IMG/VR virus record: IMGVR_UViG_3300028048_000115
Coordinates: 1-18,060 of that record
Source: a virus
Lineage: Duplodnaviria > Heunggongvirae > Uroviricota > Caudoviricetes
Length of the DNA stretch: 18,060 nucleotides
Direction: 5' to 3' (one strand)
The position numbers and the translations under genes were made by a program. Positions 1-15,935 of this stretch are shown here, piece by piece. The notes under the pieces are model-generated. The model was given only the letters and a program-made list of their open reading frames with translations, searched no databases and was not told where the DNA came from. Position 1 is the stretch's first letter. Each line of letters opens with the position of its first letter.

Positions 1-315
1 ACAAATATTATCCAAGCTCTCAGGTCTGTTCTAAATGTGGAGAAAGGCATCCAGAAATGAAAGATGTTACCAATCGTACACTAAAGTGTAAATGTGGTAA
101 TATTATTGATAGAGATTATAATTCAGCAATTAATATTTTAAAATTCGGTGAGACTGTTGTTTACAACAAATCTCACCAAACTCTTGGGAAGGACCTCTCG
201 GAGTATAAAGCCTTCAAACTTCAAGATTTTTGTGTTACACGCACAAGTCCAAATGTTTGAACTAGAATTAGTTTCTAAATGGAAGCATCTATCCTTCAGG
301 GTAGATGTAGGTCAC
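1..315 (+). mobile_element. Right part of an IS200/IS605-family (tnpB) element; right end at TCAC 312-315
   Basis: TnpB C-terminus followed by a typical right-end layout: GAAG, hairpin CATCTATCC-TTCA-GGGTAGATG (286-307), TAGG, TCAC. Left part lies outside the window. Confidence 0.8.
3..260 (+). CDS. tnpB: TnpB RNA-guided nuclease, C-terminal part (5' truncated by window edge)
   Basis: The frame of ORF 57..260 is open from nt 3: KYYPSSQVCSKCG...CKCGNIIDRDYNSAINI, the TnpB zinc ribbon plus the RuvC-III DRD-x-NA/SA-x-NI motif. Confidence 0.88.
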   Translation, partial: KYYPSSQVCSKCGERHPEMKDVTNRTLKCKCGNIIDRDYNSAINILKFGETVVYNKSHQTLGKDLSEYKAFKLQDFCVTRTSPNV

Positions 316-335
316 CTTGAAAATCCTCAGCTAAT
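185..335 (+). ncRNA. Putative TnpB omegaRNA (scaffold to 315, guide from the ~20 nt of 3' flank); 5' boundary approximate
   Basis: Established position for omegaRNA (overlaps the tnpB 3' end and right end). Visible stems: TTCAAAC 213-219 with GTTTGAA 255-261, TTGTG 230-234 with CACAA 242-246, and the terminal hairpin 286-307. Confidence 0.55.
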
Positions 336-849
336 TAAAGAGAATATCCCAATGGAAACTATGGGTTCCTTAATTGTTGGTGATTATGATTTGACCAACA
401 TCAATGATAGAAAATCTTTTATCAACGAACTTAAAGAAACTTGTACAATGTGCGATGATTTAGGCATTTCAAAAATGATGTTTGGAATGTCAAGATTTAG
501 AAAATCACCTAATTTAAAATTTTTTGAAGAACTTTATTATATATGTAAAGATAAAAATAAAATTCTTATGTATGAAGCAATTTCAAAAGACCCTTTTATT
601 TCTACTCACAAAGAATTAATTGAGTTTTCAAAACGTTTAGGAATTGATGGAATTCACGTTGATTTTGGAACCATTTTAAAAAACAATGAGGATTTTAAAG
701 AAATCGAAAAATCGTATAATATATTAAACATTCATTTCCCATTTGGAATGCAACCGAATATAAATCATAATATATCGCTTGAAAATTATTCTGGTACCAA
801 ATTGTCACAAAAGGAGATTGAAAATTGGTTAAAAAACCTAAAGCAATAG
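316..849 (+). CDS. Sugar-phosphate isomerase/epimerase-like TIM-barrel protein (xylose isomerase-like); 3' portion downstream of the IS, native N-terminus probably displaced
   Basis: Motifs TMGSLIVG, DDLGISKMMFG, LMYEA, GIHVDFG, NIHFP fit the AP-endonuclease-2/xylose isomerase fold. The part of the listed ORF 148..849 before 316 lies inside the IS end. Confidence 0.55.
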   Translation, partial: LENPQLIKENIPMETMGSLIVGDYDLTNINDRKSFINELKETCTMCDDLGISKMMFGMSRFRKSPNLKFFEELYYICKDKNKILMYEAISKDPFISTHKELIEFSKRLGIDGIHVDFGTILKNNEDFKEIEKSYNILNIHFPFGMQPNINHNISLENYSGTKLSQKEIENWLKNLKQ

Positions 850-1808
850 TTGTTGGCGCTGGTTTTTATGGGTTAATGCTTGCGACCTTTCTCAAAAAGA
901 AATACGATGTCTTGATTTTAGAGGAGCAAGCAGAACCAATGACTCAAGCATCCAATCTGTGCCAAATGCGTATTCATACTGGTATGATGTACCCCAGAAA
1001 TATTACTACTGCTATTTCCTGTTTAAAAACATTTAAACCATTTATGCTTAGATTTAAGGATGCTATCGTTGATGATTTTATAAGTCTGTATGCAGTCGCA
1101 AAGGACTCCAAAATTTCGGCATCCGATTTTTACAATGTTCAAAAAAGTTTAGGACAGAATATCAAAAAAGCAAAATTTGATATTTTTGATAACGTTCAGG
1201 AAGTTTTTGAATGTACCGAATTTACGTTTGACATTGAAATAATCAAGCAAACACTTTTAAATGAAATTGATAATGTTTTATATAATAAAAAGGTAACAAA
1301 CTTATACAAAAACACTTTAGTATGCTCTGACTCATCAATTTATATGTTTGATAAAGTCTTTTTGTGCTCTTATGCTGGAATAAATGACATTTTATTAAAT
1401 TCAGACTTGCCTATTTTTGAAAACTATAAAACCGAAATTTCAGAAAAGATTTATTTTAGGGATAATCTTGACAATGTTGCTCTTTGTGTGGTTGACGGAA
1501 ATTATTTTTCGTCTATGTGTTTACCTAAACGTTTCAATGGTCTTAAAACATTAACTGGTGCTGACTTAACCAACAATCTAATTTCAAAAACCTCTAATTA
1601 CGAAAAGGTTTTTGAAAGAGTTAGAAAGTATATTCCAGAAATTAAACTTGAGTACAAGTTTTCTGATTTTGGGGAAAAATGTTATATCCAAACGCCAGAT
1701 AATCAAAACCGAATCTGTCACGTTTTAAAAACTGACAATGTATATTCTATTTTGGGTGGTAAAATTAATAATGTCTTTGACTTATTTAAGGAGTTGAAGA
1801 ATGTTTAA
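825..1808 (+). CDS. FAD-dependent oxidoreductase (DAO-like)
   Basis: N-terminal GAGFYG Rossmann motif, ASNLCQMRIHTGMMYPR, C-terminal GGKI. TTG start 8 nt after AAGGAG (811-816). Confidence 0.8.
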   Translation: MVKKPKAIVVGAGFYGLMLATFLKKKYDVLILEEQAEPMTQASNLCQMRIHTGMMYPRNITTAISCLKTFKPFMLRFKDAIVDDFISLYAVAKDSKISASDFYNVQKSLGQNIKKAKFDIFDNVQEVFECTEFTFDIEIIKQTLLNEIDNVLYNKKVTNLYKNTLVCSDSSIYMFDKVFLCSYAGINDILLNSDLPIFENYKTEISEKIYFRDNLDNVALCVVDGNYFSSMCLPKRFNGLKTLTGADLTNNLISKTSNYEKVFERVRKYIPEIKLEYKFSDFGEKCYIQTPDNQNRICHVLKTDNVYSILGGKINNVFDLFKELKNV

Positions 1809-2529
1809 ATTTCCAAATAAATTCCTCAAGCAAAGATAACTGGTATTCCGATGAATATAACATTCCTGTGTTATTGTAGCATTTATCAAAGTTCTTTTTT
1901 AAATTGAAAGAGTAATTATATCCACATTTATTAAATACATTGATAATATCAGAAATCCAAACTGGTTCCGAAAATCTATTTAAAACCCTTATATCCTTTG
2001 CTTTTAACATATCAAAGTCGTGCTTAAGATTATCAAGACAGTACAACTGCATTGTATAATCTTCCTTGATATTTTCAAGAAAATGCCCATTCATTAAATC
2101 ATAGATAATATTTTTTCTTAGGTTATTGCCAAACAAGCAACCAATTCTCAATGTATAGCAATTAAAAAAATCCTGACAATACTTTTCAAAAATTAATCTA
2201 TGGGTTCCGTATTTTGTTGGCGGAATATCAAAAAAATTCTCATTGGAAAAGGTGTTTGCGTTGCAATCTTGAGAGGAAACCAAAAAGAAATTGTCACAGG
2301 TTATCTCTTTTAGCTTAGTTAGAATTTTGAGAATGTTCTGTAGGTCCTCAAGTGGTTTAGCATTAGCAATATATTTTACACCAGGAACACAGCAACAATA
2401 AACATTATCAAAATGTCCTTTTAAATCGGAAAAGTTCTTTGAGTTATAACACTCTAATCCTTCCTTGTCGAGTTGGTCGTACAAATTTGAACCAACAAAT
2501 CCAGTATAGCCTAATAACGCATTTCTCAT
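1786..2529 (-). CDS. NAD-dependent epimerase/dehydratase (extended SDR)
   Basis: ALLGYTGFVGSNL Rossmann motif and catalytic YxxxR-like KYGTHRLIFE. ATG at 2529 follows a GAGG RBS; the track's TTG at 2538 is less likely. Confidence 0.78.
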   Translation of the reverse strand: MRNALLGYTGFVGSNLYDQLDKEGLECYNSKNFSDLKGHFDNVYCCCVPGVKYIANAKPLEDLQNILKILTKLKEITCDNFFLVSSQDCNANTFSNENFFDIPPTKYGTHRLIFEKYCQDFFNCYTLRIGCLFGNNLRKNIIYDLMNGHFLENIKEDYTMQLYCLDNLKHDFDMLKAKDIRVLNRFSEPVWISDIINVFNKCGYNYSFNLKKNFDKCYNNTGMLYSSEYQLSLLEEFIWKFKHSSTP

Positions 2530-2601
2530 AAAATCCAATCCTCTTTTTTAGATTTCAAAAATTGGTTCCAAGTTTTTTAAAAAGTAAAAATACAACTTTC
2601 A

Positions 2602-3546
2602 TTAGAACCTCGCTAAAATACTTGCTCTTACGTTTTCTGCTTCAAGGATGGCACACACATCTCCACTTCCATTTATAGAACAGGAATTTTTAGAAACCAT
2701 TTCAATCTCAACGGTTTGGGAAATAAATGTGATTTTTGGATCCTTATCGTAATTTGTTTTGTACTTACAGGTGATAACGTTTCCTTCCTTGACCAATTCT
2801 AAAGGTTCAATATACAGTCTTGCTGAGTAATCAACCTCATCTTGGTTAAGAACCCTATGCTTTGGGGCAAATTGAGGTTTACCGTCAATAACTTTAAAAT
2901 CGGTTTCCTCTGTTTCTCTATAAGGAGTATTAAAATTCATTGTTAATTGCTTAATCAATGGATACTCTTTAATTGGTTGGAAAAGATAACCAGATAATGT
3001 AAACTCAGCACTAACTGTACAAATGTTCATAGATTTATCTTCAAATCCTTCGGTTTCTATTCCTATACTTCCTAACTGAATTGGAACTCTTGTAGGGGTG
3101 CTTTCGTTTTCAGCGTCAAAAACATCAATCGCCACATTTGGATTGAATTTTGGTGCTATTTCCTCAACAATCTGACATGCTTCGTTCATTCCTCTACACA
3201 GAATTTTAAGTGAATATACAAACGTATAAGCAACCGAATTGTATTGATATTCCTGGCTTTGAGGAAGTCTTAACTGATGAATCTTGTTGTATTTTGAAGA
3301 CTGTCTGCTTGTATCAACACTAAAACTTGATAATTCTAACACCGCTCTTGGGAGTACATTAAGATTTCCTGTAACAATTTGGTCTTCTGTTTGAGTCATT
3401 AAAATTTCCTTTTCCCTAAATTTATAGTGAATTGGAATTTTCTTTTGAATGATTTGCTCACGCTCATTTTTGTACTCAACTTCTAGGTTGCTAAAGAAAT
3501 TGAGCATAGCTAATGTATATTTTCTTATAGTGTTATGATGAAACAT
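2602..3546 (-). CDS. gp15: T4 gp15-like tail sheath stabilizer/completion protein
   Basis: N-terminal F...TIRKY...FFSNLEV, KIPIHY, LPRAVLEL, YNSVAY, CQIVEEIAPKFNP and F-x-LSGYLF resemble gp15-family proteins. A late promoter lies 31 nt upstream. Confidence 0.75.
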   Translation of the reverse strand: MFHHNTIRKYTLAMLNFFSNLEVEYKNEREQIIQKKIPIHYKFREKEILMTQTEDQIVTGNLNVLPRAVLELSSFSVDTSRQSSKYNKIHQLRLPQSQEYQYNSVAYTFVYSLKILCRGMNEACQIVEEIAPKFNPNVAIDVFDAENESTPTRVPIQLGSIGIETEGFEDKSMNICTVSAEFTLSGYLFQPIKEYPLIKQLTMNFNTPYRETEETDFKVIDGKPQFAPKHRVLNQDEVDYSARLYIEPLELVKEGNVITCKYKTNYDKDPKITFISQTVEIEMVSKNSCSINGSGDVCAILEAENVRASILARF

Positions 3547-3547
3547 A

Positions 3548-3575
3548 TTGACATTCTGTTAAAATTTACTATAAT
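3548..3575 (+). promoter_or_regulatory. Consensus sigma70-type (early) promoter for the topoisomerase operon
   Basis: TTGACA (3548-3553), 16-nt spacer, TATAAT (3570-3575). Confidence 0.8.
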
Positions 3576-3576
3576 G

Positions 3577-3588
3577 TATTTATAAATA
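3577..3588. promoter_or_regulatory. Overlapping divergent T4-type late promoters (TATAAATA on both strands)
   Basis: Palindrome TATTTATAAATA: TATAAATA on + at 3581-3588 and on - at 3584-3577. Confidence 0.6.
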
Positions 3589-3612
3589 AATGTTTTAAAG
3601 AGAAAAAAAAAT

Positions 3613-3771
3613 ATGTTTGAGATTATAGAAGAAAAAGAGGTTATTAAAAAAAATGTTGAAACCGCAGAAACGGATATTAAGGATCCTATCGAGAAAAAGA
3701 TTGAGGAACTTGAAAAGAAAATCAAGGACCTGGAAACACGTTTAGAAGAAATCGAATGGAGATTTGAGTAA
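3613..3771 (+). CDS. 52-aa acidic coiled-coil protein (MFEIIEEKEV...LEEIEWRFE), not in the ORF track
   Basis: Open frame between the promoter and gp39, heptad pattern IEEKIEELEKKIKDLETRLEEI-like, and its stop overlaps the gp39 ATG (TAATG). Confidence 0.7.
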   Translation: MFEIIEEKEVIKKNVETAETDIKDPIEKKIEELEKKIKDLETRLEEIEWRFE

Positions 3772-5291
3772 TGGAAAATTACCTTAAAAAGACCTCACGT
3801 GAGCATATTCTTGAAAGACCAAATATGTACATTGGTGCTAACAATCTTGTTAAGTCCAATGAATACGTTTTGATCAACGACTCCCGCATTGGTATCAAAG
3901 AAGTCGAGTATGTTCCTGGGCTGCTTAAAATCATCAATGAAATTATTGACAATTCCGTTGATATTGCAATCAAGACGGGTTTTAAAGGTTGTAATGAAAT
4001 TTCCGTAAAAATGTACCCAGACTACGTGGAAGTTGTAGATAATGGACCTGGTATTCCTGTAAAGAAAAACACCGACGGGGAGTGGATCCCATTTGTGTGT
4101 TGGGGTTATGCAATGTCTGGTTCCAATTTCGGAAATGACCAAAACAGAACTCAAATTGGTATGAACGGCGTTGGTTCTTACTGCACTAATGTTTGGTCCA
4201 AGAAGTTTACTGGTATTTCTGATGACGGGGAAAACCGTTATGAGATTACCTTTAAAGATAATGCTAGTACCTTTGTTGATACCGTTAAAAAGTCCGTAGG
4301 ACATGGAGTTTCAGTAAAATTCTATCCTGACTTAGAAAGATTTGGATTAGAGAAAATCACTCAAGAACACATTGACCTAATTAAGCAAAGACTTGTAAAT
4401 CTGAATGTAACATTTCCTGAAATCACTTTTAAATTTAACGGAAAAAAGATAGGTATTACTTCTTTTAAGAAGTACATCAAACTTTTTGGTGACCAATACG
4501 AAGTTTTTGAAACCGAAAATTATCAGTTTGCAATTTTACCATCGGACACAGATGAATTCCAACAGTTTAGTTATGTAAACGGACTTAACATCAAAGACGG
4601 TGGAACCCACATTGATATTATCAGTTCTTACGTTTCTAATGGTATTAGGGACAAGTTAATCAGAAAGTACAAAACCTTAAAGCCAGCCGATATTAAGAAC
4701 AAACTTATGGTGGTTGCCTTTATCAAGAATTTTGCAAATCCAAAATTTAACTCACAGACTAAAGAAAAGATTACCAATACCACAGGTGAAATGAATGCCT
4801 ATTTTGGTGATAGTTCTTGGGAACCAATCATTAAGTCTGTTTTAAAAAATTCTGCCATCATTGACCCTATCGTTGATGTCTTCAAAATCAAGGAAGAGTT
4901 AAAGCGTAAAGCAGAAATGAAGGCAATTAGTAAACCTAAGAAAATCAAGAATGACAAATATGTTCCTGCAAATAAAGAAAATAAGTATCTAATGATTACC
5001 GAAGGTGAATCAGCCGCAGGTTCATTAATGCCAACTTTTGGAATGGAAGAGTGCGGTTATTATATGTTGAAAGGTAAACCATTAAATGCTTGGGACGTTT
5101 CTCAGCAGAAATTCACTTCCAATAAAGAATTATCTGATCTGTATAATATTATTAAAAATACAACTCACGAATCACCTGAAGAAGATGGCGACTGGTATGA
5201 AATAGAAATAGATGGCAAAATGCAAATAGTTAATGAGAATGACGAAATCTTTTATAAAGGTTCTTGGAAATTAGTTAAGGATTTACTATAA
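3771..5291 (+). CDS. gp39: Type II topoisomerase large subunit (GHKL ATPase, transducer, N-terminal half of TOPRIM), T4 gp39-like
   Basis: EHILERPNMYIG, EIIDNSVD, DNGPGIP, GMNGVG, ITEGESA, LKGKPLN. Ends before the DxD motif and carries a 43-aa extra tail. Confidence 0.95.
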   Translation: MENYLKKTSREHILERPNMYIGANNLVKSNEYVLINDSRIGIKEVEYVPGLLKIINEIIDNSVDIAIKTGFKGCNEISVKMYPDYVEVVDNGPGIPVKKNTDGEWIPFVCWGYAMSGSNFGNDQNRTQIGMNGVGSYCTNVWSKKFTGISDDGENRYEITFKDNASTFVDTVKKSVGHGVSVKFYPDLERFGLEKITQEHIDLIKQRLVNLNVTFPEITFKFNGKKIGITSFKKYIKLFGDQYEVFETENYQFAILPSDTDEFQQFSYVNGLNIKDGGTHIDIISSYVSNGIRDKLIRKYKTLKPADIKNKLMVVAFIKNFANPKFNSQTKEKITNTTGEMNAYFGDSSWEPIIKSVLKNSAIIDPIVDVFKIKEELKRKAEMKAISKPKKIKNDKYVPANKENKYLMITEGESAAGSLMPTFGMEECGYYMLKGKPLNAWDVSQQKFTSNKELSDLYNIIKNTTHESPEEDGDWYEIEIDGKMQIVNENDEIFYKGSWKLVKDLL

Positions 5292-6279
5292 TGTTGCATT
5301 ATGTTTATAGATTAACAGATACAAATCCTAGAGGTGATCTTAAACATTATATAGGAAAAAGGTCCTCAAAATATATTGATATTGGTAAAGAATATTTTAC
5401 TTCATCAAAAATTTTAAATGAATATTTTAGACACAATGTAAAACAGTTTAAAATAAAAGTTGTCAAAATTTTTAATACAAGTGCCGAAGCATTAATGTTC
5501 GAAAAACAATATTTAAATAGAGTTAAAGCATCCAAATCACCTCTTTTTTATAACAGATGTAATTCCGGTAGTAATGGCCGAAATGACAATGCAGGTATTG
5601 TTCACGTTCTTTTAAAAGAAAATGGTTTACCAATATCTGTATCTTGCGAAGAATACTATTCTCACCAAGAAAAATATATTCCTCTAAATAAAGGAAAAAC
5701 AATTTATAGAGATTCAAAAGGAAATTTGGTTCATTGTACCAAAGAATATGCTAAGGAAATAATTTAGTCGGTTTGAATTATGGATTTGTTTATACTAAAG
5801 ATAAAAACGGAAATAAAGTAAAAGTTTCAAAAGAATATTATAATTCTCATAAAGATGAATTTGAATTTAGAGAAAAAAGAATCATGGCATACAATATTAA
5901 AACTAATGAGAACGTATGCGTAACAAAAGAAGAATTTGAAAATAACGAAAATTTAAAAGGAATGTATGCCAAATATCAACGTGAATATAAACAATGTCCT
6001 TATTGTAATAATATGATTTCTGTTCAAAATTATGATAGACATATTTCAACATATAAAAACAGATATTATTGGGTATCTGATGGGGAAAATATTTTTAAAT
6101 GTAGGCAAGATGTTTATTGGTTGCATTATAAAAAAGATTATGTTATACTTAATAATATTAATGATCATCATAAATCATTAAATAATAATTATGTCCCATT
6201 AAATGGAAAATTGTATCACATTAGATATGTTGCAAAAATTAGAAAAAATTGTTATATAGGTAAAGAATATGAAAATTAA
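5291..6279 (+). pseudogene. Free-standing GIY-YIG (Seg-like) homing endonuclease, frameshifted near 5755-5760
   Basis: YVY...HYIG, YFTSSK, EALMFE...L, LFYN catalytic domain followed by repeated G-x-V-x-x-K/R-D/E-x-x-G...V-S/T-x-EEY/F modules that continue in ORF 5773..6279. One extra A in AAGGAAAT joins the two frames. Confidence 0.75.
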
Positions 6280-6814
6280 TAAATTAAAAACAATCACAGA
6301 TGAACAATTATCAGCATATAAGAATAATCCTAATATTAGACGAAGAAAAGTATTAAAGAGTGGATATCAATATATTGTTTATGCAACCGATCAGGATTTA
6401 GACTGACCCTTTGGGGGGGGTCAGTATAATTAAGGAAAAAAAGACGGCATACACATCCGTTCGTTACTTAGTGGGTTTATTCACAAGTATTTACCTGAAT
6501 ACGAAGGCCGTGTAGGTATTCTTGATACACCTGTTGTCGCATTTTTCAAGAATGATAAAATTCAGCATTGGATTTACAATCTTAATGAAGATATTGAAAT
6601 AAAGAAAGGCGAAAAGTCATTTTATTTCAAAGGTCTTGGTTCTTGGGACAAAAACGATTTACAGGAAGTTATTAAGGTCGATGGAATTGAAAAGATGATA
6701 AGTATCATCAATTTTGAAAACGGTGAGGAAAATCTTAATGATTGGTTAGGTTCTGATAGTGCTCCTAGAAAGAAGTTTATTCTTGAAAATACTTTTAGTA
6801 TAGCAGACGCTTAG
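6269..6814 (+). CDS. gp60: Type II topoisomerase small subunit, T4 gp60-like: 45 codons (6269-6403), 42-nt coding gap (6404-6445), 122 codons (6446-6811); predicted 167 aa by translational bypass
   Basis: Manual translation gives MKINKL...YIVYATDQDLD | GIHIRSLL...LDTPVV...YFKGLGSW...RKKFI, supplying the TOPRIM DxDG and KGLG motifs missing from gp39. Confidence 0.9.
6401..6445 (+). other. Putative programmed ribosomal bypass (hop) element
   Basis: Take-off GAC 6401-6403, stop TGA 6404-6406, hairpin ACTGACCC 6402-6409 with GGGTCAGT 6418-6425, second in-frame stop TAA 6431-6433, AAGGA 6432-6436, landing GAC 6443-6445. Confidence 0.8.
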
Positions 6815-6830
6815 TGTGATTTTAGTCACA
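6815..6830. promoter_or_regulatory. CRP-family-like operator
   Basis: Exact TGTGA-N6-TCACA, intergenic. Confidence 0.45.
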
Positions 6831-6847
6831 TTTTGAAATTAAAATTG

Positions 6848-6876
6848 TTGTTTTCCTTATTATAAAGATCTATATT
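6848..6876 (+). promoter_or_regulatory. Putative phage promoter for rtcB
   Basis: TTGTTT-17-TATATT, within the same AAAAT..GTTGTTTTC(C)TTAT context as the four copies at 11381-11670. Confidence 0.55.
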
Positions 6877-6911
6877 ATACATAGTAAGAAATGACTTTTT
6901 ATGGAGTTAAG

Positions 6912-8015
6912 ATGAGTTCTACCATTACATTGACTGGTTCTACCATTACATTGACTGGAAAATATGCAGATGCATTTTTTCATACCAAAAATGTTGACCA
7001 GAATACACTTTTTCAAGTCAAAGCGCTGATTGACTGTGACCTTTCAGAGGGTAGTGTTATCCACATAATGCCTGATTGCCACACAGGCAAAGGTTGCACC
7101 ATTGGAACTACAATGACTATCAATGATAAATTGTGTCCTAACCTTGTGGGTGTTGATGTGGGGTGCGCCATTTTATGCTTAAAGGTACAGGGAGATTTTT
7201 CAGTTGATGACTTCTTGGATGCTTGTGAGAAAGTCCCAGCTGGTGTAGGTAAATACAACTCGGAAATGAAGGAGTTTGATGACCTTAAGAATTTATCTTT
7301 TAAGTTAGATAACCCAGATCAAATTTTGCGTTCTATCGGATCGTTAGGTAGTGGTAACCACTTCATTGAATTAAACGAAGACGAAGACGGTAACCGTTAT
7401 ATTGTTATTCATAGTGGTTCAAGAAATCTAGGAATTCAAGTATGCAGTCACCACATGAAAATTGCAAAGCAAACCAATCCAAGAGGTGACCTGTCTTTCT
7501 TAACAGGAACCAATTTTGATGACTATCTGAATGATATGCGGATTTGTCAAACCTATGCTCAGAAAAATCGTTTAGAGATTGGTGACACCATTCTAAGAAA
7601 TTTAGGAAATACTAGAATAGTTGGTGCATTTGTAACAGTTCACAATTACATAGATTTTGATGATAAAATTCTAAGAAAGGGTGCTATTTCCTGTAGTAAG
7701 GGTAAAAAAGTTCTAATTCCATTTAATATGAGAGATGGAAGTGTAATCGCAATTGGTAAGGGAAACCCTGATTGGAATTTCTCTGGTCCACATGGTGCAG
7801 GTAGAATTTTATCACGTACCCAGGCAAGGAAGAGTTTAACTCTTGAAGATTTCCAAAACGCTATGACTGGAATTTCTTCAAGGACTGTATGTCAGAAAAC
7901 AATTGATGAGGCTCCACAAGTTTATAAGGATGCTAAAGAAATTGAGAATTTAATTTCGGAAACAGTAGAAGTTCAAAAGCACTTGAAGGTTGTTGCAAAT
8001 TTCAAGGGAATTTAA
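6912..8015 (+). CDS. rtcB: RtcB-family RNA ligase
   Basis: MPDCHTGKG, VGVDVGC, GSLGSGNHFIE, IHSGSRNLG, VHNY, RKGA, PHGAGR, DEAPQVYK. ATG 6912 follows GGAG (6903-6906). Confidence 0.93.
   Translation: MSSTITLTGSTITLTGKYADAFFHTKNVDQNTLFQVKALIDCDLSEGSVIHIMPDCHTGKGCTIGTTMTINDKLCPNLVGVDVGCAILCLKVQGDFSVDDFLDACEKVPAGVGKYNSEMKEFDDLKNLSFKLDNPDQILRSIGSLGSGNHFIELNEDEDGNRYIVIHSGSRNLGIQVCSHHMKIAKQTNPRGDLSFLTGTNFDDYLNDMRICQTYAQKNRLEIGDTILRNLGNTRIVGAFVTVHNYIDFDDKILRKGAISCSKGKKVLIPFNMRDGSVIAIGKGNPDWNFSGPHGAGRILSRTQARKSLTLEDFQNAMTGISSRTVCQKTIDEAPQVYKDAKEIENLISETVEVQKHLKVVANFKGI
6916..6957. repeat. Perfect 21-bp tandem duplication (STITLTG twice)
   Basis: GTTCTACCATTACATTGACTG at 6916-6936 and 6937-6957. Confidence 0.95.
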
Positions 8016-8039
8016 AATGTACTAAAGGTTGTAGCAGAT

Positions 8040-8525
8040 ATGAATTTTTTGATCGAAAATGCAGATGAAATTTTAAAAACCCAAGAAGCAGAACGTGAAA
8101 AACTTTGGAAGTTTGATGAACTTTGTAAGGAAATGTTAAAGGAGCGAGGGAGCAATTATGTAACCATAAGGAAGTTTTGTATAAAGAACTTCAGAAGTGC
8201 TCCTTTATGGGACATTGAAAAGGTTTTTACACTTTTAAAATCTCAAGATCCAACACTTGATAAAGAGTGGAGTTTAAACTACATAGCATATTTTAAAAAA
8301 TATTATGAACAGTTTCCTAATGATAACCTTTGGAATAAGGAAATGATAAATCATTATAATAAGTTATCAGACGGAGATAAAGCATATTACAAAGTTCTTT
8401 CAGACTTAAAAAAATCAATCAAAAAAAATTTTAAAAGGTATACAGTTAAAGATCTTTGTGATATAATAAAGAAAAATGAAAAATTTAGACAAGCAATGTT
8501 AATAAACTTAATGGAAACTTGGTAA
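8040..8525 (+). CDS. Hypothetical protein (161 aa)
   Basis: Long ORF tightly packed between rtcB and gp52 (TAATG overlap); no motif recognised. Confidence 0.75.
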   Translation: MNFLIENADEILKTQEAEREKLWKFDELCKEMLKERGSNYVTIRKFCIKNFRSAPLWDIEKVFTLLKSQDPTLDKEWSLNYIAYFKKYYEQFPNDNLWNKEMINHYNKLSDGDKAYYKVLSDLKKSIKKNFKRYTVKDLCDIIKKNEKFRQAMLINLMETW

Positions 8526-9832
8526 TGCAGGAAATTTCAATCAAAGATTTACTCAATGGACAGTTAGTTAATTATGCAAGCTATGACAATATCCGAAAAA
8601 TCGGAAGTGCGATTGACGGATTAAAGAACGCGGCTAGAAAGGTTATCTTTACTGTTCACGAAAAAAAGATTAAAGATAAAACAAAGGTTTTACAGTTATC
8701 AAATAAGTGTGCGGAATATGCAGACTATTTACACGGTTCCTTAGATGGTGTTGTCGTAACATTGGGCCAAGATTTTGCTGGAACCAATAATATTCCTTTA
8801 ATTCAGAAATTTGGTAACTTTGGAACAAGATGTATTCAGGAGGCATCAGCACCAAGATACATTTTTGCAAAAGGTTCCGATGCTCTGTTTGAACTGTTTA
8901 AGTACGAAGATGACGAAATCCTAGACCAACAGTTTTTTGAGGGTTCCCGAATTGAACCTAAGTTTTATGTCCCAACTTTGCCAATGCTTTTGGTGAACGG
9001 AAGTGAGGGCGTATCTAGTGGTTTTGCTCAAAAGATTTTACCTAGAAATCCAGAAAAACTAAAGCAATATATCTTAGAAAAGTTGTCTGGAAAGGAACCT
9101 TCAACTGAATTATTAAACCCTTGGATCAAGAATTTTAACGGCTCTTTTGAACAGGGTGAGGAACCAAACAAGTGGATTGTCAAGGGAAAGATTGAACACG
9201 TAAAAGGAAATGAATATCTGATTTCTGAAATTCCATTTACCTATGACTTAAAGAGTTATGTTAAGGTGCTCGATGATTTATCAGATAAGAAGAATATTAT
9301 CAGATATTCAAATGAGAGTGACGGTGAAAACACCTTAAAATTCAGAGTCACCCTCCCAAGAGGAATTGATACATCTGAAGACGCCTTGTTAGAGCGTTTA
9401 AAACTTTTAAAACCAATTTCAGAAAACTATACAAGTATTGATGATAATCTCAAGGTTAGAGAATTTAAAAATTCCAAAGAAATTATTGACTTTTATATAG
9501 ATATAAAATTAAAATATTTAAATAAGAGAAAGATATTTTTAATTGAAAAAATCAATACAGAATTAAGCATTTTAAAGATGAAGTCAAAATTTTTAAATGA
9601 ATATATTTCTGGGTCCATCAAAATTCAAAATGTTTCAAAGTCTGAAATTGAAAAACAGTTAGTAGATTATTTAAAGGTTGATGGAAGTTATAACTATCTT
9701 ATCGGAATGCCAATTTACTCTTTAACTTCAGAAAAACTTGAGGAGTTAGAAAAGACAATTGCTCAAACTGAAAAGACTCTTTCAAAAACCCAGAAAACAA
9801 GTATCGAAAAAATGTGGAGCTCTGAACTTTGA
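8525..9832 (+). CDS. gp52: Type II topoisomerase medium subunit (GyrA/ParC-like), T4 gp52-like
   Basis: DGLKNAARKV, YLHG, GNFG, ASAPRYI (catalytic Tyr), PMLLVNGSEGVSSGFA. Start placed at the TAATG overlap. Confidence 0.95.
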   Translation: MQEISIKDLLNGQLVNYASYDNIRKIGSAIDGLKNAARKVIFTVHEKKIKDKTKVLQLSNKCAEYADYLHGSLDGVVVTLGQDFAGTNNIPLIQKFGNFGTRCIQEASAPRYIFAKGSDALFELFKYEDDEILDQQFFEGSRIEPKFYVPTLPMLLVNGSEGVSSGFAQKILPRNPEKLKQYILEKLSGKEPSTELLNPWIKNFNGSFEQGEEPNKWIVKGKIEHVKGNEYLISEIPFTYDLKSYVKVLDDLSDKKNIIRYSNESDGENTLKFRVTLPRGIDTSEDALLERLKLLKPISENYTSIDDNLKVREFKNSKEIIDFYIDIKLKYLNKRKIFLIEKINTELSILKMKSKFLNEYISGSIKIQNVSKSEIEKQLVDYLKVDGSYNYLIGMPIYSLTSEKLEELEKTIAQTEKTLSKTQKTSIEKMWSSEL

Positions 9833-10359
9833 TAATAACTATTTCAGGTCCCGCAAGAAGTGGCAAAGACTATATTGCGGGTCTTTTAAAAGAAAGATTA
9901 AATAATGCTAAGTTATATACTTTATCAAGCACTTTAAAGGAATATCTATGTGAGATTTTTTCTTTAAGTTTAGAGGAGCTTGATAGATTTAAAAACTCAA
10001 CGGAACCATTCACAGTAAATGGAACCACAATGAGAACTATTTTGCAGAAATTTGGAACCGAAATTTTTGTGAATAAGGTCGATAAGTTATTTTGGGTTAA
10101 TAAGATAAAAGAAAAGATAATTGCTGATAATGTTGATTACGCAATTATTACGGATGCTCGATTTCTCCACGAAATTGAGAGTTTTAATGGTGCTTTAAAA
10201 ATAAAGGTGATTGCAGATGACACGATAGCAGAAAATGAACACATATCAGAACGGGAATTGGATAATTATAAGTTTGATTATCTGATTGATAATAGAAATA
10301 AACCAGATTTAACAAAGGTTATTGACAAACTGGTTAAAAAAATTAAGGAAAATAAATGA
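9829..10359 (+). CDS. Deoxynucleoside monophosphate kinase (T4 gp1-like)
   Basis: P-loop ISGPARSGKD, R-x-ILQKFGTE, ITDARF, HISE, FDY-x-IDN. Confidence 0.85.
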   Translation: MIITISGPARSGKDYIAGLLKERLNNAKLYTLSSTLKEYLCEIFSLSLEELDRFKNSTEPFTVNGTTMRTILQKFGTEIFVNKVDKLFWVNKIKEKIIADNVDYAIITDARFLHEIESFNGALKIKVIADDTIAENEHISERELDNYKFDYLIDNRNKPDLTKVIDKLVKKIKENK

Positions 10360-10829
10360 TTACTTGTATTTTTTCTTGCGATTTAAACGGCGTAATTGGC
10401 GTAAATGGCACTCTTCCTTGGGATATTCCTTCAGACTTAAAGAATTTTAAAAAGGAAACCACAGGAAAGACTGTGATTATGGGCAGAAAGACTTTTGAGA
10501 GCATTGGAAAAGAACTTCCTGACCGTAGAAATATCATCATCACAACACACCCTGTTAAGGACGTTGAATGTTATTCAAGTATTAAAGAAGCATTAGCTAA
10601 AATTGATGGTGATGTTTACCTCATTGGCGGTAAGGGAATTATTGAGGAGGGATTTGAATTAGCAGACAGACTGTTAATCACTTCCGTTCCAATTGTTGTG
10701 CCTGATTATGAGGGTCCTTTAGTTAAGGTTGATATGTCAAAGAAGAAAGGTTTTGACATTGTTTCAATTGACCACGTTGAAAACCCAAATGAGATGGACT
10801 ATTATCTTATGGAATATAGGAGAAAGTAA
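10356..10829 (+). CDS. frd: Dihydrofolate reductase
   Basis: VIGVNGTLPW, DLKNFK, VIMGRKTFESIG, LPDRRNII, LIGGKGI. Confidence 0.95.
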   Translation: MITCIFSCDLNGVIGVNGTLPWDIPSDLKNFKKETTGKTVIMGRKTFESIGKELPDRRNIIITTHPVKDVECYSSIKEALAKIDGDVYLIGGKGIIEEGFELADRLLITSVPIVVPDYEGPLVKVDMSKKKGFDIVSIDHVENPNEMDYYLMEYRRK

Positions 10830-11290
10830 TGAAGTTTAAGCAGATTTTAGAAAAGGAAGAAACACCTGTTTCAACTGAAAAAGACGTTCCTGTAGCAGAA
10901 GTTGAGGACGCTAGTGTTATTGAACCATCAGAAGTTTCAGAAAACAAAGAAGCAATTGCAAAACCTGAAGAAGTCAAAGACTACGATGTGTTTGCTCGTC
11001 TCCGTGATGGTCTTGAAACTGATGAATGGATTTATATCATTAAACAGAACGATGATTGGGTAGCCAAGAAGATGATTAATGGTTCAATGCAGGATATGAT
11101 TTTACCAAATTCTCCTGACGAAACCGACGCAAAGTCGGTCTTATGTGCTGTTGAGAAAGTTTTACAAACTCCTGATATTCAGTACATTAGAACTATGGAA
11201 GAACCAATCATTCCAGATGTTCCATCTTCAGAGGAACCTACTGAAAAAGAAGAACCCGAAATGATTTCGGATTATACAACTTACGTCTAA
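10829..11290 (+). CDS. Acidic hypothetical protein (153 aa)
   Basis: ORF coupled to DHFR by TAATG and followed by a terminator; E/P-rich termini. Confidence 0.75.
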   Translation: MKFKQILEKEETPVSTEKDVPVAEVEDASVIEPSEVSENKEAIAKPEEVKDYDVFARLRDGLETDEWIYIIKQNDDWVAKKMINGSMQDMILPNSPDETDAKSVLCAVEKVLQTPDIQYIRTMEEPIIPDVPSSEEPTEKEEPEMISDYTTYV

Positions 11291-11296
11291 AAATAA

Positions 11297-11321
11297 GGGG
11301 ACTTTTTAAAAGTCCCTTTTT
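11297..11321 (+). terminator. Intrinsic terminator
   Basis: GGGACTT-TTTAA-AAGTCCC followed by TTTTT, just after the 11290 stop. Confidence 0.75.
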
Positions 11322-11524
11322 ATATAAATTAAATCACAAATAAGGAACTTTTAAAAGTTCCTTTTTAACAATTAAAAAATGTTGTTTTCTTATATATAAT
11401 TAATTAAAATTAAATCACATAAATTCTTATATAAATTAAATCACAAATAATGAACTTTTAAAAGTTCCTTTTTAACAATTAAAAAAATGTTGTTTTCTTA
11501 TATATAATTAATTAAAATTAAATT
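11320..11524. repeat. Two near-identical ~95-100-bp direct repeats (period 107), each with a stem-loop and a promoter
   Basis: Copies start at 11320 and 11427. Copy 1 contains the perfect palindrome AAGGAACTTTTAAAAGTTCCTT (11342-11363); copy 2 has one G>T change and one more A in an A-run. Confidence 0.9.
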
Positions 11525-11670
11525 CTTATATATAATTAATTTGAATTAAATCACATAAAATAGTTGTTTTCTTATAATAAACATATTATAATTAATATGT
11601 GAAATGAAAACGCAAATGTGTTTTTAAATCACATAAAATAGTTGTTTTCTTATAATAAACATATTATAAT
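11382..11670 (+). promoter_or_regulatory. Four tandem sigma70-like promoters
   Basis: TTGTTT-17-TAAAAT at 11382-11410 and 11490-11518; TTGTTT-17-TATAAT at 11564-11592 and 11642-11670. Confidence 0.65.
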
Positions 11671-11678
11671 TAATATGT
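11547..11678. repeat. Two identical 54-bp direct repeats (period 78)
   Basis: TAAATCACATAAAATAGTTGTTTTCTTATAATAAACATATTATAATTAATATGT at 11547-11600 and 11625-11678. Confidence 0.95.
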
Positions 11679-11698
11679 AAAAAAGAGAGGAACAGAAA

Positions 11699-11947
11699 AT
11701 GATTTACGAATTAACTCCTATTTATGACGCCCGTCAGTCCTTCTATGCAAAGGCATTAGTTCAGGTTTTTGAGGGTGTTGAAGTTCTGTTAAGTTATACA
11801 ATGCCAGTTGCTAAGTATGAAAACGGTGTTTTAAAACTCCTTGAAATGTGGGACTATTCTCCAACAACTTTAAGACACGTCAAGGAATTTGCAAAACAGC
11901 ACAATATTTTCGTTAACACAAAGAAAGATTTATTACAGTATGTTTGA
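11699..11947 (+). CDS. Small phage protein of unknown function (82 aa)
   Basis: RBS GAGAGGA. The pattern SFYAKA...LLSY...VA...SPTTLRHVKEF resembles small phage proteins of unknown function. Confidence 0.8.
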   Translation: MIYELTPIYDARQSFYAKALVQVFEGVEVLLSYTMPVAKYENGVLKLLEMWDYSPTTLRHVKEFAKQHNIFVNTKKDLLQYV

Positions 11948-13394
11948 GGAAATTCTTTTAAAGTCCCTAGTCTATGACGGGACTTTTTTTAACAAATGCT
12001 TTAACCTCTTAAAGTCCGATTATTTTAAGACAATTGGTAACAAAGAGGTTTTTAAACTTCTTAAAAAATACTACGCAGAGTACAAAGAACGACCATCGGA
12101 AGTTGCTCTTGTAACAATGGTCAAAGACGTTCCAAATGCGGAACTTAGAAAGACTATTGTGGAGTCCTTAAAAAATATCTCAAAAACGGATTTAAACTCT
12201 AACACAGATTTTATGTGCAATGAAACCGTCAGATTTATCAAGGATTCCATCTATTACAAGTCACTTGAAATAGGTTCCGAAGGTCTGATGAACAAAGACG
12301 AAAGCAAAATCAAAAAGGCACAATCGCTTGTGGAAGAAATGTCAAAGATTCAGATTGACAGCGATTTAGGACTTGATTTTGATGACATTAATGCTCAAAT
12401 TGAGTATTATTCAAAAAGAGAATTTGGAATTAAAACCCACTTAAAAACAGTCAACAAGCGTATTGGAAGTGGTTTTCTTCCTGGAACTCTTAACGTCATT
12501 TTGGCAGCCCAAGGTGTTGGTAAGTCATTACTGATGTGCGATTTTATTTCTGGTATGCTTCAAAATAATAAAAACGTTTTGATGGTGTCCCTTGAAATGT
12601 CTCCAAATGAGATGATGAAACGTATTCAAGCAAATGTTTTTGACATTGGTGTCAATACCTTTAGAGATCTATCAAAGACTGATGTTGAGATTTCCGCTCT
12701 TGAAAGAGCACCAACAACAAAAGATGATATTTTAAATGCTTATCAAAAGTACAAAATGCAGGGTTCCTGTGGAAAATTGTTTGTTAAGGAATATCCAGCG
12801 GGTTCGTTTAGTGCATTGATGTTAGCAGATTTAGTTGATAAATTCCGAGTTGAAAAAGGTATCACTTTTGATATAATCTTTATTGATTATTTAGGAATTA
12901 TGAAGTCTGATTTAGTGAGTGCAAATGCTGGTTTGTATTCTTATGTTAAGAGCATTTCTGAAGAAGTAAGAGCACAAGCAGTAAAACTTGGTGTTCCAAT
13001 TGTAAGTGCCTCACAGTTAAATCGTTCAGCAATCAACAAGGTTGACGGAGTTGATAACTCTGCGGTGTCCGATTCGTACGGTACAAATGCAACTGCTGAT
13101 TTAATGATGTTCATTCTCCAAAATGAAGCAATGAAAGAAAAATCAGAGGTCCTTGTTAAGTTCACAAAAAATCGTTATACAGGTATTACCGATAGTTTTA
13201 TGCTTGATATTGACTATCAGAAAATGAGATTTAGTGATCCAATCGGGGAAACCGATTTTAAGACAGTTGAGGACAAAAAGAATGCCGAACAGTTTGCAAA
13301 ATCGGAAATTAGAGAGATCCACAAAAAGGATGTCCAAATAGACAAAGCAGAAAAAATGACAACTGATGATATTTTATCAATGATAGGAATATAA
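11940..13394 (+). CDS. gp41: Replicative DnaB-family helicase (T4 gp41-like)
   Basis: Walker A AAQGVGKS, SLEMS, Walker B IFIDYLGI, ASQLNR, KNRY. ATG 11940 (MFEEILLK) overlaps the upstream gene; the track start 11889 is probably too early. Confidence 0.92.
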   Translation: MFEEILLKSLVYDGTFFNKCFNLLKSDYFKTIGNKEVFKLLKKYYAEYKERPSEVALVTMVKDVPNAELRKTIVESLKNISKTDLNSNTDFMCNETVRFIKDSIYYKSLEIGSEGLMNKDESKIKKAQSLVEEMSKIQIDSDLGLDFDDINAQIEYYSKREFGIKTHLKTVNKRIGSGFLPGTLNVILAAQGVGKSLLMCDFISGMLQNNKNVLMVSLEMSPNEMMKRIQANVFDIGVNTFRDLSKTDVEISALERAPTTKDDILNAYQKYKMQGSCGKLFVKEYPAGSFSALMLADLVDKFRVEKGITFDIIFIDYLGIMKSDLVSANAGLYSYVKSISEEVRAQAVKLGVPIVSASQLNRSAINKVDGVDNSAVSDSYGTNATADLMMFILQNEAMKEKSEVLVKFTKNRYTGITDSFMLDIDYQKMRFSDPIGETDFKTVEDKKNAEQFAKSEIREIHKKDVQIDKAEKMTTDDILSMIGI

Positions 13395-14129
13395 ATGATA
13401 GAACTTTATAATGGTGATTGTTTAGAAGTTATGGATTCCCTCATTGAAAAAGGAATTAAAGTCAATGCTATCATAACCGATCCTCCGTATGGATCTACAG
13501 CTTGCAAATGGGATTCTATAATTCCTTTTGATGAAATGTGGAAACGTCTTAATGCTTTGATAATTCCAAAAGGAAATATTGTTTTGTTTGGTAATGGTAT
13601 TTTTTCTTATAAGTTGGCATTATCCAATGAAAAAAGATTTAGATATGAACTTATTTGGAAAAAATCCAAATGCGGAAGTCCTTTGACAGCAAAATATATG
13701 CCATTGAAAAAACACGAGAATATTCTTGTTTTTGGTCAGAGTGCTAGCGTCTATAATCCTCAAATGACAGAAGGAACGCCTTATAAACGAAATTATACCC
13801 CAAACAAAATAAACAATATGGAGTATGGTATTGCTGGTGTTCAAACAGACAACAAAGGAACAAGATATCCTATAAGTATTCTTGATTTTCCACAAAAATG
13901 GAGAAGACAAGATCAACTCCATCCGACTCAAAAACCTGTTGAGCTGCTTGAATATCTGGTCAAAACATATTCTAATGAAAATGACCTAATTCTTGATTTC
14001 ACTATGGGTTCCGGTACTACAGGAGTTGCTTGTAAGAATTTAAACAGGCAATTTATAGGTATTGAACTAGATAAAAACTACTTTGAAATTGCAAAAAGTA
14101 GAATAGAGAATACGGTAGTAAATATATAA
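13395..14129 (+). CDS. N4/N6 DNA methyltransferase, beta class
   Basis: IITDPPYG precedes HPTQKP and LDFTMGSGTTG (catalytic motif before the SAM-binding motif). Confidence 0.93.
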   Translation: MIELYNGDCLEVMDSLIEKGIKVNAIITDPPYGSTACKWDSIIPFDEMWKRLNALIIPKGNIVLFGNGIFSYKLALSNEKRFRYELIWKKSKCGSPLTAKYMPLKKHENILVFGQSASVYNPQMTEGTPYKRNYTPNKINNMEYGIAGVQTDNKGTRYPISILDFPQKWRRQDQLHPTQKPVELLEYLVKTYSNENDLILDFTMGSGTTGVACKNLNRQFIGIELDKNYFEIAKSRIENTVVNI

Positions 14130-14149
14130 ATTAAAGAGAATTTAGAAGA

Positions 14150-14975
14150 ATGGTAAGATCTCCAATAGTTTATAGTGGTAGTAAATTTTCGTTGATGAAA
14201 CAATTACTGCCGTTATTTCCAAAAAATATAGATACTTTTTATGATGTCTTTTGTGGCAGCTGTACAGTATCTTTGAATGTTAATGCCAATCATTATAAGT
14301 GTAATGATATTTGTAAACCGTTAATAGACCTTTATAATTATTTTAAGACTGAATATCAAGAAAACAAATTACAAGAATATATTGAAAAATATGATCTTTA
14401 TAATATAAAAGATGAAGCTTTTTATAATATAAGGACTCTATATAATTCATCAAAAGACCCTTTGCTTCTGTATATTCTTTCAAGATGTTCTTTTAATCAT
14501 ATGATAAGGTTTAATTCCAAAAATGAGTTTAATGCAGGATTTGGAAATTTGTTTAAAATAAACGGGAAGCATCACTATGATTTAGACATTTTTAAATTCA
14601 AAAACAAAGATTTTTACAGTCAGAATTTTGATGATTTTTTTAAATGCTTTTGAATATAAGGAAAATGACTTTATTTATTTAGATCCTCCTTATCTGATTA
14701 CTAATGCAAATTACAATTCTGGTTGGACAGAAAAGGAAGAGCTGAAACTACAAGATTTTTGCAGTCAGACAAGTGCTAAATTTGGAATTTCAAATGTTTT
14801 TGAACACAAAGGACGTTCAAATGAATTGCTTAAGGAATTTGCAAAGGAATACAATGTATATTATCTAAATAAATCTTATAATGCTTGGAACAATTCGAGC
14901 AAAAATAAATCAGACAAAACAGTTGAAGTGTATATATGTAATTATGAAATTACTGAAGGTTTGGAAAAATGGTAG
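14150..14975 (+). pseudogene. dam: Dam-like (D12/alpha class) adenine methyltransferase split by a +1 frameshift at T7 (14635-14641)
   Basis: YSGSK, YDVFCGS, FNHMIRFN...FNAGFG in frame 1; FIYLDPPY, FGISN, EVYICNY in frame 2. A T6 run would give the continuous QNFDDFLNAFEYKENDFIYLDPPY. Confidence 0.85.
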
Positions 14976-15022
14976 AATTGCATAACGGCGATCGCCTTGA
15001 GGTAATGAACCAACAAGTGTAG
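14969..15022 (+). pseudogene. 17-codon relic of a second beta-class methyltransferase
   Basis: MVELHNGDRLEVMNQQV* versus MIELYNGDCLEVMDSL at 13395. Confidence 0.65.
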
Positions 15023-15038
15023 TTTTAAAAGGAAAAGT

Positions 15039-15248
15039 ATGACCCTAAATGAATTAATAAGAAGTTCCGAAATAACATTTGATAAAGTTATTTTGCGAAC
15101 AAAAGAACATAAAGAAATTAACATAACAAATGAATTGGAAAAGTACAAACCATTTGATGTTATTTCCTTTAATATCACTTCAGAAACTCACCAAAATTAT
15201 GAAACGGTAGATCGTGAATATACTCTATATGTGAAACTTTTGTGGTAA
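15039..15248 (+). CDS. Hypothetical protein (69 aa)
   Basis: ATG preceded by AAAGGAAAAG; same strand as neighbours. Confidence 0.7.
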   Translation: MTLNELIRSSEITFDKVILRTKEHKEINITNELEKYKPFDVISFNITSETHQNYETVDREYTLYVKLLW

Positions 15249-15253
15249 CCAAA

Positions 15254-15275
15254 AAATGTGATTTAGATCGCTTTT
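15254..15275. promoter_or_regulatory. CRP-like operator
   Basis: AAATGTGATTTAGATCGCTTTT matches 19 of 22 positions of the CRP consensus AAATGTGATCTAGATCACATTT. Confidence 0.45.
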
Positions 15276-15309
15276 CTGAATAATTATTCAGTATTTTTTA
15301 CGCTTTTTG

Positions 15310-15380
15310 AAAAGTCTTTATAAATCAATAACTTAGTTAAAGATCTATTTTTATTAAGTCTTTGATTTGTAAAGACTTTT
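15310..15380. repeat. 19-bp inverted repeat with a 33-nt loop
   Basis: AAAAGTCTTTATAAATCAA (15310-15328) and TTGATTTGTAAAGACTTTT (15362-15380), one T-G pair. Confidence 0.85.
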
Positions 15381-15410
15381 TTATTTTAGGCAAAAAATTT
15401 AAAAAATATA

Positions 15411-15439
15411 TTGAAATTGTATATAAAATATTTTATAAT
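15411..15439 (+). promoter_or_regulatory. Strong sigma70-type promoter
   Basis: TTGAAA-17-TATAAT. Confidence 0.75.
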
Positions 15440-15469
15440 TAATTTGTAAGTTAAAGAGAGAAAAGAAAA

Positions 15470-15607
15470 ATGTTAAAATTATTTTTTGCTGGAATTTGTT
15501 GTACAATGTTTGGTTATGAATTTTTTATGAGTGGAGACATTAAACAAATGCTTGCGTGTTTAGTTTCTGCAATTGCAATGATTTTTGTTGGAAATGAGAT
15601 GATTTAA
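15470..15607 (+). CDS. 45-aa small membrane protein with two hydrophobic segments, not in the ORF track
   Basis: MLKLFFAGICCTMFGYEFFMSGDIKQMLACLVSAIAMIFVGNEMI; first ORF after the promoter, purine-rich leader. Confidence 0.65.
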   Translation: MLKLFFAGICCTMFGYEFFMSGDIKQMLACLVSAIAMIFVGNEMI

Positions 15608-15623
15608 AAAGGAAGGAAATAAA

Positions 15624-15902
15624 ATGTTTAACGTTGTAGCTAATGATGAGACCCAGGTCGTTTTAAAAGTAACTGTTAAGGATAATCTTCAGATTGCCTT
15701 AAACCCATACATTCAGAGTGATTATGATTATATCACCGTTACAAAGGGACCAAATCACACTCTAACAGTCATCAAAAAGGATGGAACAACATTTTCTTTT
15801 GTTTGGGGAGTAGGTGGATTTACACTTATTTCTGATAATTTAGAACGCTTAAGAAAGGAAGTTGTAAAATTCATTGAGTCACAAAATATTTCTTTAAGAT
15901 AA
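15624..15902 (+). CDS. Hypothetical protein (92 aa)
   Basis: Strong RBS AAGGAAGGA; no motif recognised. Confidence 0.75.
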   Translation: MFNVVANDETQVVLKVTVKDNLQIALNPYIQSDYDYITVTKGPNHTLTVIKKDGTTFSFVWGVGGFTLISDNLERLRKEVVKFIESQNISLR

Positions 15903-15935
15903 GCAATATGTGATCATTTGTTTCACCTAACACAA

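Follow-up and report, generated by a model that had tools for sequence, protein, structure and literature searches.

In bacteriophage T4 the large subunit of the type II topoisomerase is encoded in two pieces, gene 39 and gene 60, with the gene of the HNH nuclease MobA between them. The mobA gene and the 50-nt hop in gene 60 together form a mobile cassette, as summarised by Manning and Atkins (bioRxiv 10.1101/2022.08.31.505936, 2022), who give their ref. 19 for the MobA experiments. That preprint describes dozens of such cassettes and already reports conserved extensions, a C-terminal tail on the first half (CTE) and an N-terminal head on the second (NTE). In its metagenomic clades 9 and 10, the nearest to the Campylobacter clade, MobA has given way to a GIY-YIG nuclease. 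The metagenomic take-off codon is mostly GAC, UGA occurs in three cases, and the hairpin loops are mostly UUUG. A split form without a gap is reported there for Firehammervirus.

Here we analysed such a cassette in a window of 18,060 nucleotides, positions 1 to 18,060 of the viral IMG/VR record IMGVR_UViG_3300028048_000115 (87.7 kb, estimated completeness 48%). We consider it very probable that this cassette is a member of the known mobile element that invades the topoisomerase II large-subunit genes of T4-like phages, with one unit of tail, head and gap held in common with T4 and the nuclease exchanged. The exact sequence is present in the preprint as MGS7 (clade 9, bovine rumen, Ga0256405_100009377 / IMGVR_UViG_3300028048_000115). 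The two open reading frames of the window (ORF1 and ORF2) appear letter for letter in its Table S2 and Files S2 and S6, as do the gap with its runs of eight G (G8) and seven A (A7) and the nuclease, which has an X at the same frameshift. What is found here is therefore a locus correctly rediscovered; it is already known, and the population details are incremental. What we add to the preprint is small: an unsplit allele that is 98-99% identical, variation of the gap length at the strain level, and a frameshift and G8 run seen only in this record. A look through the preprint's supplement for NIIKNENYQYIVY, the junction peptide of the near-isogenic empty allele, gave no match.

Compared with gene 39/mobA/gene 60 of T4, the locus has the same insertion site in TOPRIM (judged relative to RB69), a homologous tail and head, a nuclease gene that overlaps both of them, and a recoded TOPRIM strand. 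The two gaps are alike in their matched codons, adjacent stop, take-off hairpin and mini Shine-Dalgarno sequence (mini-SD). The nuclease, on the other hand, appears to be of GIY-YIG type with about 330 amino acids (aa), where T4 has the HNH MobA. The insert is 1283 bp long against about 1100 bp, take-off is at an Asp codon (GAC) one codon upstream of the Gly codon (GGA) of T4, the stop that follows is TGA rather than TAG, and the gap measures 42 nt (36-38 in sister strains) against 50 nt. The topoisomerase core is only 36-39% identical to that of T4. The closest cultured relatives of the core are the Firehammervirus phages CP220 and CPt10 (52% identity in the N-part, 48% in the C-part). Their topoisomerase is likewise split and carries a homologous tail and head, but it lacks both nuclease and gap, and about 22 kb separate the halves. 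Gene 60 of Aeromonas phage Aes012 likewise has its predicted take-off and landing at GAC, after the third Asp of DxDxD, with a stop codon next to it. It differs in a MobA-type relic nuclease, a minimal hairpin and a much shorter gap, annotated in GenBank as a predicted 17-nt bypass.

The insert, its empty counterpart and the added tail and head

The gp39-like ORF (3771-5291, 506 aa) is GyrB-like and its stop falls inside TOPRIM. The boundaries of the insert become apparent when the window is compared to contig L021, which comes from another sample and encodes an unsplit protein of 600 aa (P0033) near-identical to both halves. At the DNA level this close relative lacking the insert is 98.8% identical to the window up to base 5159 and 98.4% identical from base 6443. 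The alignment places the insert at 5160-6442 (1283 bp), where it stands in place of 42 bp of parental TOPRIM sequence, and with these boundaries the tail is exactly 43 aa and the unique part of the head 31 aa. The replaced 42 bp encode ENYQYIVYSTDQDL, and the insert brings its own recoded copy of this strand, GYQYIVYATDQDLD, in which 30 of 39 bases equal the deleted parental segment and the nine differences are almost all synonymous. When the two parts are joined at the two GAC codons, the parental TDQDLDGIHIRSLL of P0033 is obtained exactly. The GC content of the insert is 25.9%, compared to about 34% in the flanking parts of the gene. The features of the locus are collected in Table 1.

The tail and the head can both be traced to T4. 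A profile of seven tails of the clade matches residues 473-512 of T4 gp39 (PDB 8yo3) with an E-value of 1.5e-12, and a profile of eight heads matches residues 1-45 of the 46-aa T4 gp60 leader (PDB 5np6, chain C) with an E-value of 5e-4. Both segments are absent from the unsplit large subunits of Vibrio phage Va1, Campylobacter phage CPX, RB69 and P0033, which pass directly from ...IIKN to (E)NYxYIV.ATD.D.DG, and thus tail and head travel with the insert.

An earlier note on this DNA, made by a model from the letters alone, had described most of this correctly. It proposed a GyrB-like subunit split within TOPRIM in the manner of T4, and the start that it gave, 5160, agrees with the alignment to L021. 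The AGAC direct repeats that it listed are both present (6400-6403 and 6442-6445), and every element of its arrangement, an endonuclease gene between the topoisomerase halves with the gap downstream, was found in its place. The 43-aa tail and the head of about 31 aa also hold, as does the view that they are a portable module, homologous to the T4 termini, in a topoisomerase otherwise distant from that of T4 (36% identity between the N-part and T4 gp39). Even the T4 gp39 tail that the note quoted is correct when compared to the T4 sequence. Of the findings that the note had named as speaking against such a module, those that could be looked for here did not turn up, as the alignments to the T4 termini are significant and the segments are absent from unsplit relatives.

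The tail is 44-64% identical to the tails of Straboviridae, compared to 38-42% for the core. It is nearer to the tails of Proteus and Acinetobacter phages (62-64%) than to those of L018, L019 and CP220 (44-49%), although the latter are the nearer relatives by core. This affinity is only suggestive; the comparison of tails uses identity values, the 39-43 aligned residues being too few for separate trees of core and modules. In the cryo-EM structure of T4, TOPRIM bears a pendant insertion of about 70 aa, made up of tail and head, that makes no DNA contact and is proposed to be an assembly aid or chaperone (PMC11461880). For the window proteins the predicted co-folding of tail and head, with alignments of 7 and 8 rows, scored 0.28 against a mark of 0.32, which speaks neither for nor against their association.

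Table 1. Features of the split topoisomerase locus and neighbouring genes (positions in the window)
Feature	Position	Strand	Remarks
gp15-type tail sheath stabiliser	2602-3546	-	
gp39-like topoisomerase II large-subunit core	3771-5159	+	ATPase, transducer, first TOPRIM half with EGESA motif; Pfam DNA_gyraseB, HATPase_c
43-aa C-terminal tail (CTE) and stop	5160-5291	+	Insert-encoded; homology to L021 ends at 5159; TAA overlaps nuclease ATG
Nuclease N-part, GIY-YIG-type catalytic domain (putative)	5291-5767	+	PHROG 314; premature stop after frameshift
A3 run with one A missing	5757-5759	+	Nuclease frameshift; sole internal indel compared to the intact gene of L016
Nuclease C-part in shifted frame	5761-6279	+	Repeat modules, CxxC...H...H zinc-finger-like motif; 62% identity to P0025 residues 158-325
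31-aa basic head (NTE) of gp60-like gene	6269-6361	+	Insert-encoded; 11-nt overlap with nuclease 3' end
Recoded copy of TOPRIM strand, 14 aa	6362-6403	+	Insert-borne; stands in for 42 bp deleted from the parental gene
Take-off codon GAC (Asp45) and TGA stop	6401-6406	+	GAC-TGA kept in all seven distinct gaps
Take-off stem-loop	6402-6425	+	Over the last two GAC bases and the stop; G8 run 6413-6420
42-nt coding gap	6404-6445	+	TGA 6404-6406, hairpin, in-frame TAA 6431-6433, AAGGA 6432-6436, A7 6436-6442, landing GAC 6443-6445
Parental large-subunit C-part	6446-6817	+	Remaining TOPRIM and tail domain; PHROG 7229 and 543, topoisomerase II
RtcB	6891-8015		
gp52-like topoisomerase subunit	8519-9832		

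The cassette nuclease

The nuclease gene overlaps both of its neighbours out of frame, the tail at TAATG (5289-5293) and the head over 11 nt (6269-6279). Its best family in PHROGs is phrog_314, homing endonuclease (E-value 1.6e-10), and phrog_10820, which is labelled HNH endonuclease, follows far behind with a weak match (E-value 0.0022). In Pfam the nuclease stays below the gathering thresholds of PF01541 (GIY-YIG; 18.9 against 22.6 bits) and PF19835 (SegE; 21.9 against 25 bits), and the intact homologue P0025 (325 aa, 55% identical to the N-part over its residues 1-155) scores similarly. Pfam shows no HNH match for either the window nuclease or P0025, so a MobA-type HNH domain was not detected there, and NCBIfam has no family for the nuclease. 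The GIY-YIG motifs are visible as HYVYRLT and KHYIGKRS, and six homologues share HYVYR.T, K.Y.GK and an invariant E71 and N88.

A structural model of intact P0025 (AF2) has a mean predicted local distance difference test score (pLDDT) of 68, which is medium confidence, with 54-69 in the N-domain. In a Foldseek search with this model the most probable matches were the catalytic domain of I-TevI (probability 0.97, TM-score 0.54-0.59) and the GIY-YIG N-domain of UvrC, but with an E-value of 0.16. The zinc-finger matches of the C-part are weak, and the family profile run against PDB sequences gave only a weak zinc-finger match. Taken together, the PHROG family, the motifs and the I-TevI match support a nuclease that is GIY-YIG-like rather than an HNH MobA, as the earlier note had read it.

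The distribution of the family is narrow. Among 5.8 billion proteins all six relatives sit between a gp39-like gene and a head ORF of 45-46 aa, a constant placement that points to a nuclease family dedicated to the topoisomerase-splitting cassette; a tblastn search with the nuclease returned only two weak matches in Campylobacter phages.

In the window record the gene is broken by the loss of a single A. Contig L016 carries an intact nuclease gene that is 90% identical to the window at the DNA level, and the contigs from three other studies all have the extra A and thus an intact frame. The break is therefore either private to the window record or an assembly error. A programmed frameshift was also considered and rejected, as the relatives simply have one more A.

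The coding gap and its relation to that of T4

The head ORF (6269-6403) comprises 45 codons and ends with ...YATDQDLD, followed by TGA. The parental frame restarts as GIHIRSLL at 6446 and runs to 6817, and this C-part has no ATG, GTG or TTG start and no entry in the ORF list of the window. An IMG/VR search for related loci with the C-part as query found no relatives, and those compared here were taken from the protein index. Over the take-off and stop codons lies a hairpin with a folding energy of -15.5 kcal/mol (z -3.4), and none of 200 shuffled sequences folded as well. Equivalent hairpins are found in L012, L016, L019 and T4. A mini-SD precedes the landing GAC, with a spacing of 6 nt for GGA and 7 nt for AGG.

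Seven distinct gaps were available for comparison, with lengths of 42, 36, 38, 36, 43, 40 and 32 nt. All start with GAC-TGA-CC; at the other end each has GAC or GAT, then a codon for Gly and.HI, and their lengths fall in all three frames. The same is seen at much closer range: in strains that share 98% identity or more with the window the gaps measure 36, 37 and 38 nt, compared to 42 nt in the window, again in all three frames. Changes of length that are not multiples of three, with the flanking frames unchanged, indicate that the gap is not decoded. The contigs of the three other studies and L012 have four G (G4) where the window has eight, and five or six A (A5, A6) rather than seven; one near-identical contig has GAT as its landing codon. 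With G4 the hairpin has a perfect stem of 8 bp and a UUUG tetraloop. The G8 run is private to the window record among the samples compared and could be either true variation or an artefact of assembly.

Two further observations concern the gap. In L013 (4972-5003), and also in L014, the nuclease is cleanly removed and the tail, the head and a 38-nt gap are kept; there an in-frame ATG, 4-5 nt downstream of AAGGA, adjoins the landing GAT on its 5' side. A short goat-gut contig (run X7 record 14, depth ~313) matches only the take-off hairpin region, 6392-6423, and has other flanks, ending ...GATGGATTCCACAT. Its probable source is a different abundant phage that has a related gap.

The relation of this gap to that of T4 is where we depart from the earlier note, which held that nuclease and gap had both been gained independently of T4 and that only tail and head were a shared portable module. 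The gap would then be convergent. The differences in length, take-off codon and stop given above speak for this explanation, as does the weakness of the cross-clade alignment, with a mean column identity of 49%. However, both gaps interrupt the same motif one codon apart, T4 taking off at the Gly of DxDxDG and the window phage, as predicted, at the preceding Asp, and the order of parts is identical in the two. Aes012, which belongs to the MobA lineage, has its predicted bypass at this same GAC codon. L019 and L020, within the GIY-YIG group, keep a T4-like hairpin tip with the CCUUCGGG tetraloop, and a block of 9 nt, AUAAUUAAG, lies 5' of the mini-SD in both the window and T4 gaps. Additionally, the head that would bear the nascent-peptide signal is homologous, and the alignment in Fig. 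5 of the preprint points toward intermediates between MobA-type and GIY-YIG-type cassettes. An independent origin of the gap therefore seems improbable to us. The gap is probably not independent of that of T4, and a single ancestral cassette of tail, head and gap, in which the nuclease was replaced, would be the simpler and more parsimonious history.

Translation across the gap and wider context

The element would work as follows. In a bovine-rumen phage the 1283-bp insert has replaced 42 bp in TOPRIM, supplying the 43-aa tail, a GIY-YIG-type nuclease in place of the HNH MobA, the 31-aa head, the recoded TOPRIM strand and a 42-nt gap that is predicted to stay untranslated. Ribosomes on the 45-codon head would stall at GAC-TGA within the hairpin, the peptidyl-tRNA(Asp) would come off and re-pair with the GAC 42 nt downstream, just past AAGGA, and translation would resume, restoring the parental ...TDQDLD-GIHIRSLL exactly. 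We infer in this way that ribosomes skip the gap and yield one joined polypeptide. Folded with each other into a small additional domain, tail and head may then bridge the TOPRIM halves, as PDB 8yo3 shows for T4. Recoded strand and gap would be expected to destroy the nuclease's own target, by analogy with T4 MobA as reported in the preprint (bioRxiv 10.1101/2022.08.31.505936, citing its ref. 19).

In T4 the leader signal includes the residues Y16, Q19, V22 and R24, among others. When YKNNPNIRRR of the head is aligned to YKLQNNVRRS of T4, the Y and the RR are kept, and Q19 and V22 are not identical. Since CP220, which has no gap, has a similar leader motif, the motif alone is no proof of a function in bypass.

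Several points weigh against a T4-type mobile element with an exchanged nuclease and a bypassed gap. The assignment of the nuclease to the GIY-YIG type draws on motifs, on Pfam scores below threshold and on a medium-confidence model whose pLDDT is lower in the catalytic domain, and since the gene is frameshifted in the window record, this copy would not be mobile on its own. The homology of the gap to that of T4 is one of position, architecture and a 9-nt match, and falls short of a statistically strong alignment. Bypass itself is deduced from sequence features and from the likeness to T4. Finally, in the nuclease-less relative L013/L014 the landing codon directly follows an in-frame ATG, from which the C-part could be initiated separately.

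This last point could be extended to an explanation in which there is no bypass at all, and the C-part is either a third polypeptide initiated at the AAGGA site or belongs to a gene 60-like part that is a dead remnant. AAGGA with its A-rich spacer does resemble a ribosome-binding site, and the ATG of L013 and L014 would suit such a start. Yet there is no in-frame start codon at this place in the window, L012, L015, L016, L018 or L019, and the matched Asp codons are kept in every gap. A break here would fall between the acidic cluster DxDxD and the residue that comes after it in the same motif. The downstream frame is also intact and 98.4% identical to the unsplit allele. We give this explanation very little weight, less than that of a convergent gap. 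Least credible, to the point of being nearly negligible, is that the gap is decoded as a TOPRIM loop of 13-14 residues by read-through of TGA (an alternative code or suppression): the gap is a multiple of three in the window and L012, and the gene caller read L012 through with TGA as Trp, but the window gap also contains an in-frame TAA, relatives and near-identical strains have frame-shifting gaps of 37, 38, 40, 43 and 32 nt, and the neighbouring called genes use TGA as an ordinary stop.

Bypass of a T4-type gap remains the preferred explanation, and a more speculative extension of it concerns the homopolymer runs. The G4/G8 and A5/A6/A7 variants could act as a slippage-prone dial on the efficiency of bypass, and hence on the amount of complete large subunit, with the GIY-YIG cassette also being polymorphic in ruminant-gut phages, where empty and insert alleles coexist and the nuclease is mostly intact. 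We regard this combined proposal as rather unlikely, though less so than the explanations weighed above against bypass or shared descent.

The genes around the locus mark a T4-like phage (gp15-type, RtcB and gp52-like; Table 1). As a whole, the topoisomerase of the window phage has its nearest counterpart in the Campylobacter Firehammerviruses. Its two parts differ in their affinities. The N-part is nearest to Firehammervirus (52% identity, compared to 39% to Va1), and the C-part (6446-6814) is nearest to the Vibrio phage Va1 group (58%, compared to 48% to Firehammervirus). Such mosaic affinities, judged from sequence identities, would fit an exchange around a homing site.

The surroundings vary among the relatives. 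In the window the RtcB RNA ligase gene stands between the gp60-like and gp52-like genes, and the empty allele of L021 extends into the start of an RtcB gene; L013 and L016 have no RtcB here, the gp60-like gene being followed by an ORF of 157 aa and then the gp52-like gene. Other nucleases are also found nearby. L018 carries, besides the cassette nuclease, a second, canonical homing endonuclease (405-1193; Pfam GIY-YIG, NUMOD3 and I-TevI DNA-binding domain) just upstream of its gp15-like gene. In Campylobacter phage CPX (L006, 3403-5028) the large subunit is unsplit, and the 541-aa homing endonuclease Hef15, another nuclease at the same operon, lies between the large-subunit and gp52-like genes.

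The hop in gene 60 of T4 was long taken as a one-off, and cassettes like MGS7 place it in a widespread mobile element. The nuclease of this element appears to be exchangeable while the tail, head and gap persist, as was already argued on the same sequence in the 2022 preprint. To this the near-isogenic empty allele adds the ends of the element, which it fixes to the base, and the contigs compared indicate that most natural copies have an unbroken nuclease gene. The natural series of gaps of 36, 37, 38 and 42 nt, which share a single genetic background, could be used directly in bypass reporters. If the proposal of a polymorphic GIY-YIG cassette is true, it would provide a second, independent natural system in which to test what makes a bypass gap necessary for a homing nuclease.

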